From NCBI GenBank assembly GCA_045594425.1, contig JAZNYK010000013.1, forward strand, positions 119,244-143,243: a stretch of 24,000 bases of DNA. Reading direction: 5' to 3'. Made by a program: the position numbers and the translations under genes. Below are positions 2,403 to 19,812 of the stretch, piece after piece. Source of the stretch: Clostridia bacterium. GTDB taxonomy: Bacteria > Bacillota > Clostridia > Christensenellales > UBA1242. Numbering within the stretch: position 1 is the first letter of the stretch; each line of letters starts with the position of its first letter. The notes beneath the pieces were generated by a model. It searched no databases and was not told where the DNA came from. It worked only from the letters and a program-made list of their open reading frames with translations.

Positions 2403-3401
2403 ATGATGAAAAATGTGTTGCAGTGGTATGAAGGTGTTTGTGACAGTTGGAAACAAAATGAATCACATTTTGAATCCGACACACTTGCCATGAGCAAAAT
2501 TTCGGAAGCAAATCGCAGTTATGTGACACTTGGAAACACAAGATATTTTGTTAAAACTCCACATAGCAGAAGGTTTAAATTTGGTTGTGTTAGATTGGGA
2601 AGTGCTTGCAGAGATAACTTTTTATCAACAACAAGCGAACTGGTTTCACAAAAGAAATTTAAAGAGTTAGATTTTTTCACGGCACAATATAAACCAATCA
2701 TGCGTTCAGCATTAAAAAGTGCAGTCAAAAAAAACGAACAAGGTCTTTCAGAGTCATTTGTTCTTGTTTCACCAATTTTGATATCAAATCAAAATATGCA
2801 CACAGCAACTATTCATGCATTGCAAGAGCAGGAACATTTGCTGTTTCCAGACACTCAAATGGATAGCATTATGTTTAGTGATTTGGAAACCGCTCTTGAA
2901 AATAAAGACTATTTTTTGCAGTTTATGACAGAAAATTGTTATGACGAATACATAGAATACATTTTGGCGTCAATTTTTGACTTTACAGACGATGACCATC
3001 TTGGCAACATAATTTTATGGCACCCAAAAGATAGTCATCGATTTGAACACCTTTTAGTGCACGATAAAGAGTCTACTGCATTCAACCCAATGGTTGCAGA
3101 AGGTTATTCTTATAAGGATGTAAAAAAAGGAATTTGGGAATTTTCACATTACAACGGAGTTCCAATCAAGCACAAAGATGAAAATTCAGCGGATAGGGTT
3201 ATGGAAGTTACCAGGCTTATTGCAAGCGGAAAACTCCAAAAAAAATACTGTGAATTTTTGAGCAGGATTGCTTGTCTTGACTATCAAAAATTTGCAAATG
3301 AAGTTTGCACAGAAACGGGGCTTGTTCCTAGTCAAAAACAAATTGATGTGTATCAGTTTGGTGCAGAATGCGCAGGTGAAATTGTTATAAGAGAAATGTA
3401 A
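2403..3401 (+). CDS. Hypothetical protein, paralog A; possible HipA_C-like/protein-kinase-like fold
   Basis: 332-aa ORF colinear with the next ORF. Shared blocks: WYE at the N-terminus, K..HSR, SEL[VI]SQKK, FLTAQ/FFTAQ, MTE.C[YF]D.YI.Y.LAS.F.F[TS]DD.H..NII, F.DKEST.FNP, IA.GKL.KKY.FL. D-x-H-x-x-N at 2991..3008 and a conserved Asp at 3063..3065. No SD upstream. Confidence 0.7.
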   Translation: MMKNVLQWYEGVCDSWKQNESHFESDTLAMSKISEANRSYVTLGNTRYFVKTPHSRRFKFGCVRLGSACRDNFLSTTSELVSQKKFKELDFFTAQYKPIMRSALKSAVKKNEQGLSESFVLVSPILISNQNMHTATIHALQEQEHLLFPDTQMDSIMFSDLETALENKDYFLQFMTENCYDEYIEYILASIFDFTDDDHLGNIILWHPKDSHRFEHLLVHDKESTAFNPMVAEGYSYKDVKKGIWEFSHYNGVPIKHKDENSADRVMEVTRLIASGKLQKKYCEFLSRIACLDYQKFANEVCTETGLVPSQKQIDVYQFGAECAGEIVIREM

Positions 3402-15610: not shown

Positions 15611-17008
15611 TTATTGCAATGAACTTGAGTTTGTAAGTGCAACATAGTTTGCAACATCTTCTTTGTTTTGTGCCTTAATTTTTTTGTCAAGAATTGATTT
15701 CTTATCTTCATCTTTTTCAGGGTCACCATTAAGCACAATGTCTGCACCCTTTTCAAGACCAGCATCAAGTTCTTTTTGTTTAACCATTTCTTTAATAAGG
15801 TCAGCAATTTCTCTGCGGGCAACGTTTTTAAAGTTGATTCTTTCGTCATCTGCAAGCAGATTTTCATAAGATGCATTATATTCTTTTGGTAATGCACCAA
15901 CTGTTCTTGCTTGAGCCCTCCAGTGATTGTAATAAATTGAAGCACATTTTTCAAGGTCTTCAAAGGTGAGTTCACTTTTTCCTTTTAAAATAGGTGCGAC
16001 TTCAGATTTGAAAGTTGCTTTAAAGTTTGCATATCTAGCAAAATCTGTTTTGTTTTGTTGTTCAAGCAAATCTTTAATGCTTATAAGTTTTTCAAGATAT
16101 GCTGGGTTTAGTCCAGATGCAATTGATTTATCCTTAAAGAGTTCTTCAATTGCTCTAACAACAATCGATCTGTTTAATGCCAAAATGTTTGGTTGGAAGG
16201 TTAGTTCTTTTGAAATAGAAACAATTTGAGCACGGTCTTTGTCTTTTTCATTGTTTGTTTCTGACTTAACCAAAAGATGTTCATAAGGGAATAATAATCT
16301 AACGTCAGCCCAACTATGTTCACGTTCCATCCATTCAATGTGAACGTCATGAGCCATGTTTTCAAAAACTTCAAAAATTTGTTCTTTTGTGCCCTCAAGT
16401 TCGCCATTTTCAACACATTTTTTTACAAGGCAAAGTGCAAATTTTGCAGCATCGAGGTTAGCATCTTGCCATTTTTTTGTTAATGCTTCAAATGGAACTC
16501 TGATAAGGTCAAATTGAACTTCTTCAACTATTTCAGTTATTTCTTTTTTTGAACCATCTGGTTGTTCTTCCTCTCTTTTAACTTCAACAGGAACTATTCT
16601 AAACAACTTTTTTGGGTTTTCTTTTTTTGGTGCGTTTGGGTCAATTCCATAATGCTTAAAAATTAAATTGTTTTGTTCTTCTTCGCTTAAGTGAGGATAT
16701 TGTTTTTTTATAACAGGCAAAAATAGTTTTTGGTATGTTTCAAATAAATTATTTTCATCAATGTTTTCAAACTCTTTTCTATGAGCAAGCACAATTTCTG
16801 TAAATTTTTTATCTTTAACTGCTCTAAAGTGTTGATAGTCTGGACCTTTTTCGTTAATAAGGTTTTGTTTCCAGTCCTCATGAAGACACTTACTGGTGTT
16901 TTCTGAAAGTTTTAATAATTTGTCACCTTCTGGAGAGTTGAACATTGCAAGCATTTGTTCATGATTTAAATATTTTGCTAGGTGTTCAAAAAATAGTGTA
17001 TTTTTCAT
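15611..17008 (-). CDS. Hypothetical 465-aa protein with three RyR-domain-like repeats
   Basis: SD AAAGGAG upstream of ATG 17008. Three segments with H-x-x-W followed by an aromatic-E-x-L acidic stretch: CLHEDWKQN..., DVHIEWMEREHSWADVRLLFPYEHLLVKSETNNEKDKDRAQIV, and YNHWRAQARTVGALPKEYNASYENLLADDERINFKNVARREI. Resemblance to RyR (PF02026) is judged by eye only. Confidence 0.6.
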   Translation of the reverse strand: MKNTLFFEHLAKYLNHEQMLAMFNSPEGDKLLKLSENTSKCLHEDWKQNLINEKGPDYQHFRAVKDKKFTEIVLAHRKEFENIDENNLFETYQKLFLPVIKKQYPHLSEEEQNNLIFKHYGIDPNAPKKENPKKLFRIVPVEVKREEEQPDGSKKEITEIVEEVQFDLIRVPFEALTKKWQDANLDAAKFALCLVKKCVENGELEGTKEQIFEVFENMAHDVHIEWMEREHSWADVRLLFPYEHLLVKSETNNEKDKDRAQIVSISKELTFQPNILALNRSIVVRAIEELFKDKSIASGLNPAYLEKLISIKDLLEQQNKTDFARYANFKATFKSEVAPILKGKSELTFEDLEKCASIYYNHWRAQARTVGALPKEYNASYENLLADDERINFKNVARREIADLIKEMVKQKELDAGLEKGADIVLNGDPEKDEDKKSILDKKIKAQNKEDVANYVALTNSSSLQ

Positions 17009-17152
17009 AAAATGCTCCTTTTGTTGTTTTTATTATAGGATAGTTTAAATTTCAAAACAAACAATATTTTAAGAAAGTTTAAAAAACATCTGAATAAATC
17101 AAAATTTTTGTGCAATTTGAAAACTTTTTTAAAAAACTTTATAAAATAAATA

Positions 17153-17181
17153 TTGACATATATTGTTTTGGTGGTATTATA
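17153..17181 (+). promoter_or_regulatory. Promoter of the tyrS leader transcript
   Basis: TTGACA (17153..17158), 16/17-nt spacer, TATTAT/ATTATA (17175..17181). Confidence 0.6.
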
Positions 17182-17208
17182 GATGTAATAACACAAAAGG
17201 AAAGGCAT

Positions 17209-17256
17209 ATGAAAATTGTTAATTTTTCAGTTTCATATTACTACTACTGCATATAA
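17209..17256 (+). CDS. Leader peptide MKIVNFSVSYYYYCI with four consecutive Tyr codons (TAT TAC TAC TAC)
   Basis: SD AAGGA (17197..17201) 7 nt upstream of the ATG. 15 sense codons plus TAA. Tyr codons at 17236..17247. The ORF end is embedded in the 5' arm of a hairpin, and the gene downstream is tyrS. Confidence 0.6.
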   Translation: MKIVNFSVSYYYYCI

Positions 17257-17337
17257 GGCTATATGTAGTGTTTTGTGATGAATAAAAAAAACAAACCTGT
17301 CATATAGCAAAAATTGCTTGTGGCAGGTTTTTATTTT
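17245..17337 (+). promoter_or_regulatory. Transcription attenuator: alternative hairpins 1:2, 2:3 (antiterminator) and 3:4 (terminator)
   Basis: Hairpin 1:2 pairs 17245..17255 (TACTGCATATA) with 17260..17270 (TATATGTAGTG), 11 bp including 2 G-U. Hairpin 2:3 pairs 17258..17265 (GCTATATG) with 17301..17308 (CATATAGC), 8 perfect bp. Hairpin 3:4 pairs 17295..17310 with 17314..17328, about 15 bp with one bulge, followed by TTTTTATTTT. Confidence 0.55.
17294..17337 (+). terminator. Intrinsic terminator inside the tyrS 5' leader
   Basis: AACCTGTCATATAGCAA aaa TTGCTTGTGGCAGGTT followed by TTTTTATTTT, 150 nt upstream of the tyrS ATG. Confidence 0.75.
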
Positions 17338-17486
17338 GTATCCATAAGCAAATTTGTTCGGCAAACCTTTGTTTTTTGGAGGAAATTATGATAAAATCGT
17401 TGTTAGTTACAAAAACTTATGCCCTGTTGGGGCAAGTTTGTTAGTTTTATTATCAATCAAAAATAAATTATAAGGAAAAATATATT

Positions 17487-18734
17487 ATGACAAAAGTAGA
17501 CACAAATTTATACAACGAACTTAAAGAACGTGGATTGTTATATCAATGCACAGATGAAGAAGCATTAAAAAAAGCATTAGAAAGTGGTGAACCTATCACT
17601 TTGTATGAAGGAACTGACCCAACAGCAGACAGTTTGCATATTGGTCACTGTGTGCCTTATACAATCTTGAGAAGATTTCAAAAAGCAGGTCATAAAGTTT
17701 TGGTTTTAATGGGTGGTGCAACTGCTAGCATTGGTGATCCATCTGGCAAGTCTGAAATGAGAAAAATGCTCTCATATGAAGAAGTTCAAAACAATATCGA
17801 AAAAATCAAGAAGACACTTTCTATTTTCTTGGATTTTGAAGGTGAAAACCCAGCAACTATTGTTAACAATGCAGACTGGTTCAAAAATCTTAACTACATT
17901 GATTTTATGAGAGAAATTGGTGTTCACTTTAACATCAACAAAATGCTTTCAAATGACATTTATTCAAACCGTATTAAAGAAGGTGGTTTGACACTTTTTG
18001 AACTTGGCTATATGCCTATGCAAGCATATGATTTTGTTCATCTTAACAAAGAATATGGATGCACTCTTCAATATGGTGGTGCCGACCAATGGGGAAATAT
18101 TGCTGCAGGCACAGAACTTCAAAGAAAACTCAATTTTGTTAATGGCACAAACATCAACTTGATTGGTGCAACAAACCCACTTCTTTTAACTCCAGAAGGC
18201 AAAAAGATGGGCAAGACTGAAAGAGGTGCAATTTGGCTTGATACAGACAAGATTTCTGCTTATGATTTCTATCAAGGAATTTATCAAACACCAGATGCTT
18301 GTGTTAGAATGATGTTTGCTCTTTTCACAGATGTTCCAATGGCTGAAATTGATGCTATGATTGCTGAAAACATTGTTACAGCAAAAAAACGTCTTTGCTA
18401 TGAAATCACAAAGTTTGTTCGTGGTGAACAAGATGCTATCACTGCACAAAAGATGAGTGAAAATCTTTTCACTGATGGTGGAAATGATGCTCCTGAATTT
18501 GAAATAAGCAAAGCAGATGCAGATGCTGGTGTTGGTCTTTTGGACCTTCTTGTGGCAACAAAACTTTGTTCAAGCAAGGGTGAAGCAAGAAAAATGATTG
18601 AAGGTGGCGGAATTTCAGTTAAAGGTGAAAAAGTTTCTGACACAACACTTTATTTAAAAACTACTGATTTTGATGACGGTTCAATTCTTCTAAAAAAAGG
18701 CAAAAAGTCTTTTGTTAAAGTTGTTATAAAATAA
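17487..18734 (+). CDS. tyrS: Tyrosine--tRNA ligase
   Basis: Class I signature HIGH (DSLHIGH), KMSKS variant KMGKT, the GADQWGNI block, and a C-terminal S4-like domain (SKGEARKMIEGGGISVKGEKV). Confidence 0.92.
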   Translation: MTKVDTNLYNELKERGLLYQCTDEEALKKALESGEPITLYEGTDPTADSLHIGHCVPYTILRRFQKAGHKVLVLMGGATASIGDPSGKSEMRKMLSYEEVQNNIEKIKKTLSIFLDFEGENPATIVNNADWFKNLNYIDFMREIGVHFNINKMLSNDIYSNRIKEGGLTLFELGYMPMQAYDFVHLNKEYGCTLQYGGADQWGNIAAGTELQRKLNFVNGTNINLIGATNPLLLTPEGKKMGKTERGAIWLDTDKISAYDFYQGIYQTPDACVRMMFALFTDVPMAEIDAMIAENIVTAKKRLCYEITKFVRGEQDAITAQKMSENLFTDGGNDAPEFEISKADADAGVGLLDLLVATKLCSSKGEARKMIEGGGISVKGEKVSDTTLYLKTTDFDDGSILLKKGKKSFVKVVIK

Positions 18735-18737
18735 AGC

Positions 18738-18762
18738 AAGACCACGTTTGTGGTCTTTTTTG
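18738..18762 (+). terminator. Intrinsic terminator after tyrS
   Basis: AAGACCAC gttt GTGGTCTT followed by TTTTTG. Confidence 0.8.
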
Positions 18763-18789
18763 TTGCAAGTAAAAAATTTTTGATTGCTA

Positions 18790-18818
18790 TTGAAATGAGA
18801 AAGGTTATTTGATAAAAT
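18790..18818 (+). promoter_or_regulatory. Extended -10 promoter for the 319-aa orphan gene
   Basis: TTGAAA (18790..18795), 17-nt spacer ending in TGa, TAAAAT (18813..18818). Confidence 0.55.
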
Positions 18819-18852
18819 AAAGATGTTAAGATAACGTTTTGGGGAGTGTGTT

Positions 18853-19812
18853 ATGTTGACGATTAGTGAAGCAAAAAAAATTCCGTATAGTCAAGTTGAC
18901 AGTGAAACGGAAGCATATTTATATGATATGTTCAGAAGATATGTTGTTAGAAAGCAAATTGCAGATAACAACAATATGTTAAAGAGTGTGTTTGCAAAAA
19001 AGTTACGCACATCAAATCCACGAGATTTTTCAAACTGTTATAATCATTTTAACAGTGCATTTGTTAATGCAAATTTGATTGGGCAATTGTCTTATGATGA
19101 AGCAAGCACAGATTTTTTAAGAAGTCTTTCAGAAGACGAGTTTAACAGACATTTGAACTCGCCACATAATTCATTTGAAAGAAAAATTGCTTTGATTTGT
19201 TATTCTGGCAGAGCAAGTGAAAGAATTGCAAATCGTGCAGAATTTTCGGTTATGGTGGCTTATGCAAATATGCAACAAAAAGTGATGGAATATGTTAAAA
19301 AGTTTCCACAAAAATCATTAACACAAATTATTAGCATTGCAGCCGAAGAGGTTAGAACAGAACACAAAACAACCACTGGAATAAAAATAAATGACACTTC
19401 TGTTGCTGAAAAGCGAACAGATTATAAAAGTTTAGCAAAAAAAGCAGCACCTGTTTGGCAATCGATGCTAGCAAGTTTTTTAGTTGATTTAGATGCTGGT
19501 GGAAGTTTGGATGTTGAAAGTTTTATGCGACAATATTTTATTTTTACAAAGGCAGATAAACAACCATTTGATGAAATGTGTGAAGAAGCAAAATCAAGGG
19601 CAGATGTTTCATTAAAAAAGGAACAAGGTTCTGCAACCGCAAGAAAAATAAGATTTAATTCATATTATGATGTGTCAGATTATGACGAAGTTTTTTCACC
19701 GGGCTATGCAACTGAAGTTTATAATGATGAATTGAAAATAGAGGCAAAAAAGATATTTAACAAATATATTGAAGATTTAAATTTCACCCCAAAAGAAAAG
19801 GGTAAACAATAA
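18853..19812 (+). CDS. Hypothetical protein (319 aa), no recognisable domain
   Basis: Long ORF with SD GGGGAG 6 nt upstream, its own promoter and terminator. Predicted soluble and helical-looking. No motif I can name. Confidence 0.6.
   Translation: MLTISEAKKIPYSQVDSETEAYLYDMFRRYVVRKQIADNNNMLKSVFAKKLRTSNPRDFSNCYNHFNSAFVNANLIGQLSYDEASTDFLRSLSEDEFNRHLNSPHNSFERKIALICYSGRASERIANRAEFSVMVAYANMQQKVMEYVKKFPQKSLTQIISIAAEEVRTEHKTTTGIKINDTSVAEKRTDYKSLAKKAAPVWQSMLASFLVDLDAGGSLDVESFMRQYFIFTKADKQPFDEMCEEAKSRADVSLKKEQGSATARKIRFNSYYDVSDYDEVFSPGYATEVYNDELKIEAKKIFNKYIEDLNFTPKEKGKQ

Follow-up and report, generated by a model that had tools for sequence, protein, structure and literature searches.

The tyrS gene of B. 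subtilis is the founding example of T-box control, a mechanism that was discovered on this gene. The trp leader of E. coli (trpL) encodes a peptide of 14-15 codons, carries its regulatory codons 3-4 codons before the stop codon, and contains a first RNA segment that overlaps both the regulatory codons and the stop codon. Among aminoacyl-tRNA synthetase (aaRS) genes, pheST of E. coli is under classical attenuation (Springer et al. 1985, as cited in PMC11802643 and PMC1262725), and attenuators have been predicted before trpS2 and leuS in Streptomyces (Seliverstov et al. 2005, PMC1262725). The same comparative study of 2005 assigned T-boxes to the aaRS genes of Firmicutes and placed none of them under classical attenuation (PMC1262725). 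His-leader attenuators of his operons have been described in the B. cereus group, Peptostreptococcaceae and Erysipelotrichales (PMC9413887), and the aroR leader of C. glutamicum, with the codons Phe-Tyr-Phe, controls aroF and did not respond to tyrosine, according to PMC11802643 (reporting Neshat et al. 2014). Here we describe the leader of a tyrS gene in a stretch of 24,000 nucleotides (nt) of low-GC DNA (~31% GC) from an uncultured gut bacterium of the Clostridia (contig JAZNYK010000013.1), hereafter the window. On computational evidence we consider it likely, and with good confidence, that this leader is a ribosome-mediated transcription attenuator responsive to charged tRNA-Tyr, and that it governs what share of the transcription from an upstream promoter, P1, reaches tyrS.

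The leader lies on the plus strand, between 17153 and 17340. Promoter P1 (17153-17180) consists of a -35 box TTGACA (17153-58), a 16-nt spacer, a TG at 17172-73 and a -10 box TATTAT (17175-80), with 11/12 consensus matches. It is the best promoter-like site across the 2.5 kb from 16500 to 19000, and the block aatATTGACAtat...TGgTAtnAT is kept in relatives. A Shine-Dalgarno (SD) region, AAAGGAAAGG (17196-17205), precedes a leader open reading frame (ORF) of 15 codons, MKIVNFSVSYYYYCI (17209-17256), with its ATG at 17209 and its TAA at 17254-56; in relatives, SD sequences of the A(A)AGGA type are kept 5-9 nt before the leader ATG. The regulatory Tyr codons, TAT TAC TAC TAC, occupy 17236-17247. 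Segment 1 (17245-17255), made of the last Tyr codon, the Cys and Ile codons and the first two bases of the stop codon, pairs with 17260-17270 in an 11-bp hairpin (1:2, -10.9 kcal/mol). Segment 2 (17258-17276), the 5' arm of the antiterminator, starts 2 nt past the stop codon and comprises the core GCUAUAUGUAG followed by a conserved UUUUGU(G) tail. Its first eight bases, GCUAUAUG (17258-65), are complementary to CAUAUAGC (17301-08), which belongs to segment 3, ACAAACCUGUCAUAUAGC (17291-17308), a stretch that serves the antiterminator as its 3' arm and the terminator as its 5' arm. The conserved UUUUGUG extends the 2:3 core by pairing with ACAAAC at the terminator foot, and the full antiterminator of the window has ~17 bp (17258-76 with 17291-17308; -14.2 kcal/mol as a hairpin). 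The intrinsic terminator (3:4, 17293-17337, -19.8 kcal/mol) has a 17-bp stem at 17293-17330 and a T-run, TTTTTATTTT, at 17328-37; it was missed by a simple promoter/terminator scan, whose loop and stem rules are probably unfit for a bulged stem. The fold of the whole leader has z = -3.8 against dinucleotide shuffles.

All the features of an attenuator that we looked for were found in this leader: an SD-led ORF, tandem cognate codons, mutually exclusive pairings, and a geometry that suits a ribosome. We propose that it would work as follows. The P1 transcript would begin near 17187, and a ribosome would load on the 15-codon ORF. When Tyr-tRNA(Tyr) is plentiful, the ribosome would reach the UAA at 17254-56, where its footprint would cover the start of segment 2 (17258 onward); after its release the local 1:2 hairpin would re-form, segment 3 would be free for segment 4, and transcription would end at ~17335-17338, at the 17-bp terminator and its U-tract, leaving a leader RNA of ~150 nt. 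Under a shortage of Tyr-tRNA(Tyr), the ribosome would stall with its A site on one of the four Tyr codons (17236-47), covering segment 1 only, and segment 2 (17258-76) would pair with segment 3 (17291-17308) before segment 4 is made. With 2:3 formed, the terminator would be blocked and RNA polymerase would run on into tyrS. A leader that is not translated would form 1:2 and 3:4 and terminate. A second promoter, P2 (17387-97), would supply basal tyrS mRNA, with the attenuator acting as an inducible boost. We infer that the leader ORF is translated, that stalling occurs, that 2:3 prevails kinetically and that P2 is active.

The evidence that carries this proposal comes in the first place from relatives. 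A TyrS search of genome contigs gave 80 loci with 70-91% identity, to which closer database homologues were added afterwards, and a separate scan of metagenome contigs gave two relatives at >=78% identity; the sequence collected covered ~6 kb around tyrS, for 173 loci in all. An SD-led ORF with a Tyr run was present 210-300 nt upstream of tyrS in 12 of the 80 loci, all of them closer relatives (TyrS 78-91%). A profile of the leader (nhmmer) matched 26 loci with 22 distinct sequences (E 2e-38 to 2.5e-16), always upstream of tyrS and on its strand, and had no match elsewhere in the 173 loci; the TyrS proteins of these leader-bearing relatives are 78-100% identical to that of the window. The leader ORF has exactly 15 codons in 19/22 distinct loci, every one of the 22 has 3-5 consecutive Tyr codons placed 2-4 codons before the stop, and segment 2 begins 0-8 nt after the stop codon in all leaders. 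The first nine residues vary freely (MKIVNFSVS, MTKLFNAFS, MKKSFNAVS, MNNFKSTFS and others). Besides MKIVNFSVSYYYYCI, the leader peptides include MTKLFNAFSYYYYCS, MKVLNSVFAYYYYCI, MKLVNLFASYYYYYI, MKTSNFKFSYYYCYI and MKNTLFTLASYYYCI, and further ones are MNNFKSTFSYYYYCN, MKNFKTNHKFELYYYCI, MNQTNSISLSYYYVYIY and MIANLIVSEYYYDYIF. A drifting N-terminus combined with a kept frame, length, Tyr run and stop position is the signature of a regulatory leader and not of a functional peptide. The Cys of many leaders is explained by RNA pairing, because its codon, UGC, alternates with UAC and both face a U of segment 2.

The association of this unit with tyrS is close. In 1.08 Mb around 95 tyrS loci, read on both strands, 29 of the 35 short ORFs (sORFs) that start with ATG, have <=25 aa and contain YYY lie within 360 nt upstream of tyrS, and one of the six outside that interval is a true leader, displaced in locus L172. 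When 29 loci of the clade were scanned in a generic manner, for an SD and an sORF with a triplet run of any amino acid and a terminator, the tyrS leaders alone were returned. Upstream of the leader, the neighbouring genes vary from locus to locus (HD-domain, DegV, alpha-amylase, M60 peptidase, VanZ and unknown proteins), and the pairing of leader and tyrS is constant. In L172 an ORF of 237 aa (274-987, no Pfam match on record) is inserted between the two, and positions 1-1000 of this locus hold a complete Tyr attenuator (MNAYFSSVSYYYYCI, tandem terminators and a P2-like motif) ~950 nt upstream of tyrS. The inserted gene would be co-regulated by tyrosine, because the leader now heads both genes.

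The RNA helices were analyzed in an alignment of 21 leaders, with 500 shuffles and with helices slid along the alignment as controls. Across the 8-bp 2:3 core, 99.4% of the alignment cells are paired, with double changes at three pairs. RNAalifold, applied from the stop codon to segment 3, gave an antiterminator with a consensus of 11 bp, 98.3% paired and with compensatory changes at 6/11 pairs; none of the 500 shuffles reached any of five measures, and the slid controls were 19-49% paired. The terminator has compensatory changes at 9/17 pairs and a covariation score that was likewise reached by 0/500 shuffles. The 1:2 hairpin has 87% of its cells paired, against 10-64% in slid helices, and changes on both sides at 4 pairs. 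Two relatives rewrite 2:3 wholesale, L001 (UUGGUGUG/CACACCAA) from CUAUAUG/CAUAUAG to GGUGUG/CACACC and L164 to CUAUGUG/CACAUAG, and in both of them segment 1 changes in step with segments 2 and 3. The energy of the 2:3 duplex is -10.9 to -20.6 kcal/mol in 21/21 leaders, with z of -1.7 to -5.5 against shuffles.

The effect of a ribosome was simulated on the RNA from its start to 17312, that is, before segment 4, with a footprint of 28 nt made unpairable. With the A site on Tyr11-13 (Tyr10-13 if the leading edge is set at 15 nt), 8/8 core pairs of 2:3 form; with the A site on Ile15 or on the stop codon, 0/8 form; and with the ribosome absent, 1:2 forms. An earlier note on this DNA, made from its letters, had described the promoter, the SD and the 15-codon ORF with four Tyr codons, all of which are where it had placed them, and had proposed three mutually exclusive pairings; 1:2, 2:3 and 3:4 were all found, with covariation in the latter two. 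Its claim that a stalled ribosome frees 2:3, and that a ribosome at the stop masks segment 2, agrees with the masking folds. The hairpin with a T-run that it put at about 15 bp is a terminator, with a stem of 17 bp instead. Its caveat that 2:3 amounts to 8 AT-rich bp does not hold for a helix with an 11-bp consensus and a variable extension. The comparison of constrained folding energies that it suggested sets the -14.2 kcal/mol of 2:3 against the -19.8 kcal/mol of 3:4.

The simple design of four segments proposed in that note does not extend to many relatives, which carry a six-segment relay or terminators in tandem. A U-tract is missing from the 3:4 hairpin of L003, L004, L049, L081 and L173, where segment 4 (UGGCAG) has its complement in a segment 5 (CUGCCA/CUGCUGG) and a further hairpin, 5:6, is the terminator, ~110-170 nt past the leader stop; this design is best described as a six-segment relay that would follow the same logic. 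Tandem terminators, both of them switchable, are present in L001, L002, L005, L009, L164, L166, L171 and L172, and in the window and its nearest relatives, L161 and L162, the second terminator is reduced to a decayed remnant. The UUUUGUG of segment 2 (17271-77) has a second possible partner, CACAAAA (17192-98), just 5' of the leader SD, and this helix appears in the minimum free energy (MFE) structure computed with no ribosome. Complementarity of this type, over 6-10 bp, is possible in 19/21 leaders, mostly with no clear excess over composition-matched shuffles. The ACAAA at the terminator foot is the better supported partner; both pairings may occur, because the MFE structure with no ribosome uses the one in the 5' untranslated region (UTR). 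By forming in the terminated conformer, the helix with the 5' UTR might curb new rounds of initiation on the leader ORF.

The usual control of tyrS in this part of the bacterial tree, the T-box, could not be detected in the window. The T-box family RF00230 had no match in the window at Rfam gathering score, none over the whole window at E<=0.01, and none at E<=10 with permissive filters on 17000-17600. The T-box core GGGTGGNACCRCG had no pattern match in the leader, the nearest stretch having 5 mismatches and lying inside the promoter, and the conserved T-box sequence AGGGUGGNACCGCG (antiterminator bulge), a UGGN bulge, a Stem I and a specifier signal were all looked for in the leader and not found. 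The negative carries weight because T-boxes before tyrS in distant relatives are picked up by the same E-value scan. They lie directly upstream of tyrS in 10/11 more distant relatives (59-84 bits, E 2.5e-10 to 9.5e-17), namely L018, L022, L025, L028, L030, L041, L044, L059, L062 and L066, at ~40-270 nt from the gene (to ~390 nt in L018), and the specifier in the two printed alignments (L025 and L066) is GAAU-UAC-A, that is, Tyr. A T-box core occurs <=450 nt upstream of tyrS in at least 34 loci, mostly 65-80 nt before the start codon. The gathering score of RF00230 in Rfam 15 is 93 bits, and a gathering-mode scan of L001-L020 that showed no T-box is therefore uninformative. Annotation at gathering thresholds misses the genuine T-boxes of these AT-rich relatives, and it labels the leader of the window as empty intergenic sequence.

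Other known families did not account for the leader either. Among the leader-peptide families of Rfam, Phe_leader (RF01859) reached 15.5 bits (E 8.9) where its gathering score is 55, and none of the Trp, His, Thr and Leu leaders matched; the window leader is analogous, not homologous, to these families. The sub-threshold Rfam matches (mir-4524 at 29 bits, the trpB motif at 24 bits, and the Phe_leader match) were set aside as insignificant look-alikes of hairpins or terminators. Features of an antibiotic-inducible attenuator of the erm/cat type were not found in the leader: the downstream gene is a housekeeping TyrRS, and conservation in the peptide centres on a run of one codon type.

A rough neighbour-joining (NJ) tree of TyrS groups the leader-bearing sequences in a single clade, nested within lineages that have a T-box before tyrS, of which L022 and the group of L064/L069/L071 are nearest. 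The simplest reading of these sequences is that the T-box would have been replaced once by a leader-peptide attenuator within one clade of Clostridia, and that the attenuator would have been lost secondarily in L010-L012, L014, L015 and L169. We also observed two tyrS genes, L006 and L063, on different contigs of one metagenome-assembled genome (MAG; isolate MGG03635_1680015435), one with the leader peptide (83% identity to the window TyrS) and the other with a T-box (73%); they are either a true pair of paralogues with two different sensors or the result of bin contamination.

The region between the terminator and tyrS contains signals of its own. A putative extended -10 promoter with no good -35 box, P2 (17387-17397, plus strand), follows the motif TRTGnTAnAAT (TATG-A-TAAAAT), and its weak -35 kept it below the threshold of the promoter scan. 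The motif is present at a comparable position, between terminator and tyrS, in 21/21 aligned leaders, and it is the sole promoter-like element before tyrS in clade members with no attenuator, such as L011, L012, L014 and L169. This conservation suggests that P2 is probably a constitutive promoter giving basal tyrS mRNA, with a start expected near 17404. P2 lies downstream of the terminator, and the attenuator would therefore add an inducible component to basal transcription of tyrS, which is probably controlled by more than the attenuator alone. The earlier note, which had put tyrS under the attenuator, is supported in this respect for transcription from P1 and probably does not hold for the gene as a whole, since the conserved P2 stands downstream. 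It had also seen no T-box sequence, specifier loop or stem I, and the failure of RF00230 even at E<=10 bears this out, with distant relatives carrying a Tyr T-box at the same position. It had proposed to test orthologous leaders for conservation of the sORF frame and the Tyr run and for compensatory changes; frame, length and Tyr run are kept in the 22 distinct leaders, and compensatory changes are present in helices 2:3 and 3:4.

P2 overlaps a second short ORF, sORF2 (MIKSLLVTKTYALLGQVC; 17378-17444 including its SD), which has its ATG at 17388 and a strong SD of the GGAG type (GGAGGA, 17378-83) and is kept in 12/21 leaders, where its start codon is the ATG of the TRTG motif. sORF2 would exist only on read-through transcripts from P1, because its ATG sits inside the -10 region of P2. 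It encodes a hydrophobic middle, followed by an invariant Tyr codon placed directly against a GC-rich hairpin, UGCCC-UGUU-GGGGCA (17420-17434), which the scan listed as terminator-like. Folded singly, the 12/12 leaders that bear sORF2 have this hairpin, at -7.3 to -10.6 kcal/mol and with varying loops. We rejected it as a second terminator: a U-rich tract follows it in the window, and not consistently in relatives. A further reading would make the leader a two-tier tyrosine sensor, with the attenuator as its first tier. The second tier would act on P1 read-through transcripts only, that is, during Tyr limitation; a ribosome stalled in sORF2 could open the hairpin or protect the mRNA against decay from its 5' end, and the stall would stabilise tyrS mRNA or improve its translation. 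In a broader form of this reading, the control of aaRS genes would have shifted across the whole clade from T-boxes to leaders read by ribosomes. We regard this reading as rather unlikely.

Several points weigh against attenuation as the explanation of the leader, or limit its part in the control of tyrS. The organism is known only from MAGs, and the support is wholly computational. Covariation in the 1:2 hairpin is weak, with a score reached by 37/500 shuffles, and its support is mainly conservation. When the full window leader is folded, the terminator is the equilibrium structure at every ribosome position (16/17 pairs), so that read-through depends on kinetic trapping of a pre-formed 2:3 helix. 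In the trp leader of E. coli the terminator is likewise the equilibrium structure and read-through is kinetic; in L003, L081 and L166 the equilibrium fold of the full leader itself switches with the position of the ribosome. The attenuator is absent from L010-L012, L014, L015 and L169, which have a short promoter-proximal leader or an operon position, and it is dispensable, because several members of the clade live with no such element (L082, with 74 nt of upstream sequence, is too short to judge). P2 may lower its regulatory weight further, since it lets tyrS be expressed without P1. Johnson et al. (2020) reportedly described transcription and translation in B. subtilis as asynchronous. PMC8586808 reports that the two processes are asynchronous in this species, and ribosome-timed attenuation would be harder there for that reason.

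P2 also opens the way to the first of the rival explanations, in which P1, the sORF and the terminator form an autonomous small gene, for a small RNA and/or a protein, that happens to stand beside a tyrS transcribed from P2 only. The conserved promoter between terminator and tyrS, the only one in relatives that lack the leader, speaks for such a gene, as does a strong terminator that is the equilibrium structure in the window. Yet what is conserved in the peptide is a series of codons for the very amino acid that TyrS handles, the unit is found before tyrS only although neighbourhoods vary, and in L172 it remains upstream of the inserted gene and tyrS together. A covarying antiterminator that overlaps the 5' arm of the terminator would moreover be useless to a free-standing gene, and we consider this explanation improbable.

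We give still less credence to a trans-acting factor that reads the UAY repeats, be it a TRAP/PyrR-like protein, TyrS itself, or uncharged tRNA-Tyr in a degenerate, T-box-like manner. The 3-5 triplets of the leaders, which could in principle form a binding array, fall far below the 9-11 of TRAP sites, and no TRAP/PyrR-type array was seen on reading the sequence, which has no GAG/UAG array and carries its 4 contiguous UAY triplets inside an SD-led ORF. A tRNA that binds directly is hard to reconcile with a leader that has no T-box core, UGGN bulge, Stem I or specifier signal. The general habits of the phylum favour such a factor, in that Firmicutes typically use protein- or tRNA-mediated antitermination (PMC1262725) and transcription and translation are poorly coupled in B. 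subtilis, by the account in PMC8586808. Against it, 22/22 leaders keep a well-spaced SD, the ATG, a frame that stays open through 9 freely varying codons, and a stop placed 0-8 nt ahead of segment 2, all of which would be needless if the leader were not translated.

It is very improbable that the leader peptide is itself functional, as a Tyr-rich signalling or toxic peptide for which the hairpins are merely the terminator. Its C-terminal motif, S-YYYY-C/Y-I, is conserved, as this explanation would have it; however, the codons of that motif coincide with segment 1, where RNA pairing accounts for the conservation of nucleotides, the N-terminal two thirds vary almost freely, and the covarying antiterminator would be left with no role. 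The view that an AT-rich sORF and hairpins came together by chance, for which one can cite the ease with which TAT/TAC runs and AU hairpins arise in a genome of ~31% GC and a second sORF with YYYYY at 2384-2431, is effectively refuted by the conservation of the unit in 22 leaders with covariation, by a generic scan with no false positives, by the strong enrichment upstream of tyrS, and by the lack of an SD and a terminator at the second sORF.

That second sORF, MLYYYYYDEKCVAVV (2384-2431), has five consecutive Tyr codons and was rejected as a Tyr leader: it has neither SD nor terminator, and part of its sequence is shared with a promoter-like site, TTGAAC-17-TATATT, and with the ATG of the ORF at 2403-3401. 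A (TAT)n run that arose by chance is the probable explanation of this sORF, and the ORF at 2403-3401 may be translated from a leaderless or near-leaderless mRNA. The tyrS gene (17487-18734, plus strand) encodes a tyrosine--tRNA ligase of 415 aa with Pfam domains PF00579, PF22421 and PF01479, and its relatives are named tyrosine--tRNA ligase; the closest in the databases, at 84-100% identity, come from MAGs labelled Clostridia, Clostridiales or 'Christensenella sp.'. An SD, AAGGA, stands before it at 17472-76, and tyrS appears to be transcribed as a monocistronic unit because it has its own terminator at 18738-18757 (plus strand), found by the promoter/terminator scan. At gathering thresholds, Rfam 15 matches a tRNA and nothing else within the window.

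In Firmicutes, the T-box counts as the standard way to control aaRS genes, and here a well-sampled clade of gut Clostridia would have swapped that of tyrS for a trp-style leader-peptide attenuator, with the T-box kept in sister lineages. This would provide a natural case in which two RNA devices that respond to the same signal, the charging of tRNA-Tyr, have been exchanged at one locus, and it should help in asking why lineages prefer the one or the other. It would also be a test case for ribosome-timed attenuation in Firmicutes, where transcription is thought to outrun translation; a clade-wide shift of aaRS genes to ribosome-read leaders, if true, would imply effective coupling of transcription and translation in a Firmicutes lineage. 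For synthetic biology, the leader would offer a compact and specific Tyr-responsive part. The earlier note had called such an attenuator unusual and possibly undescribed, and this view agrees with the literature searched, in which, with incomplete coverage of full texts, no published Tyr-codon leader, no tyrS attenuator and no leader-peptide attenuator of an aaRS gene in Firmicutes was found. The novelty is probable, and this leader appears to have no described predecessor, either as a leader peptide based on tyrosine codons or, within the phylum, as a leader-peptide attenuator before an aaRS gene.

The mechanism itself is a known one, and by analogy the leader would work like the trp and pheST attenuators of E. 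coli. With pheST and its pheM leader it shares an attenuator placed before an aaRS gene, a run of cognate codons and mutually exclusive antiterminator and terminator hairpins; it differs in that it would sense Tyr and not Phe, in having a second promoter downstream of the terminator, and in showing no sequence homology to the pheST system, which is gamma-proteobacterial. With trpL it shares the geometry of 1:2, 2:3 and 3:4, with the terminator the most stable of the three, whereas trpL has two Trp codons, serves biosynthetic genes and is unrelated in sequence, and many relatives of the window leader add segments 5 and 6, as a relay or a tandem terminator, that trpL does not have. The elements predicted for trpS2 and leuS of Streptomyces would be, like this one, classical attenuators before aaRS genes of Gram-positive bacteria found by comparative genomics; unlike it, they belong to GC-rich Actinobacteria and sense other amino acids. 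The His-leaders resemble it as lineage-restricted attenuators of Firmicutes that occur where T-box or repressor control is absent and that have 3-5 tandem regulatory codons, and they differ in serving biosynthetic operons, in sensing His and in belonging to different sequence families. The aroR leader of C. glutamicum likewise has a Tyr codon in the leader peptide of an attenuator of aromatic amino-acid metabolism, although in aroR it is a single codon flanked by Phe codons and reported to be unresponsive to Tyr. The closest counterpart in function is the tyrS T-box (RF00230), which has in common with the window leader the gene, the charging of tRNA-Tyr as signal, antitermination as output and, in sister lineages, the genomic position. 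The two differ in their reader: the T-box reads uncharged tRNA through its specifier codon and bulge, and in the window leader the reader would be the ribosome.

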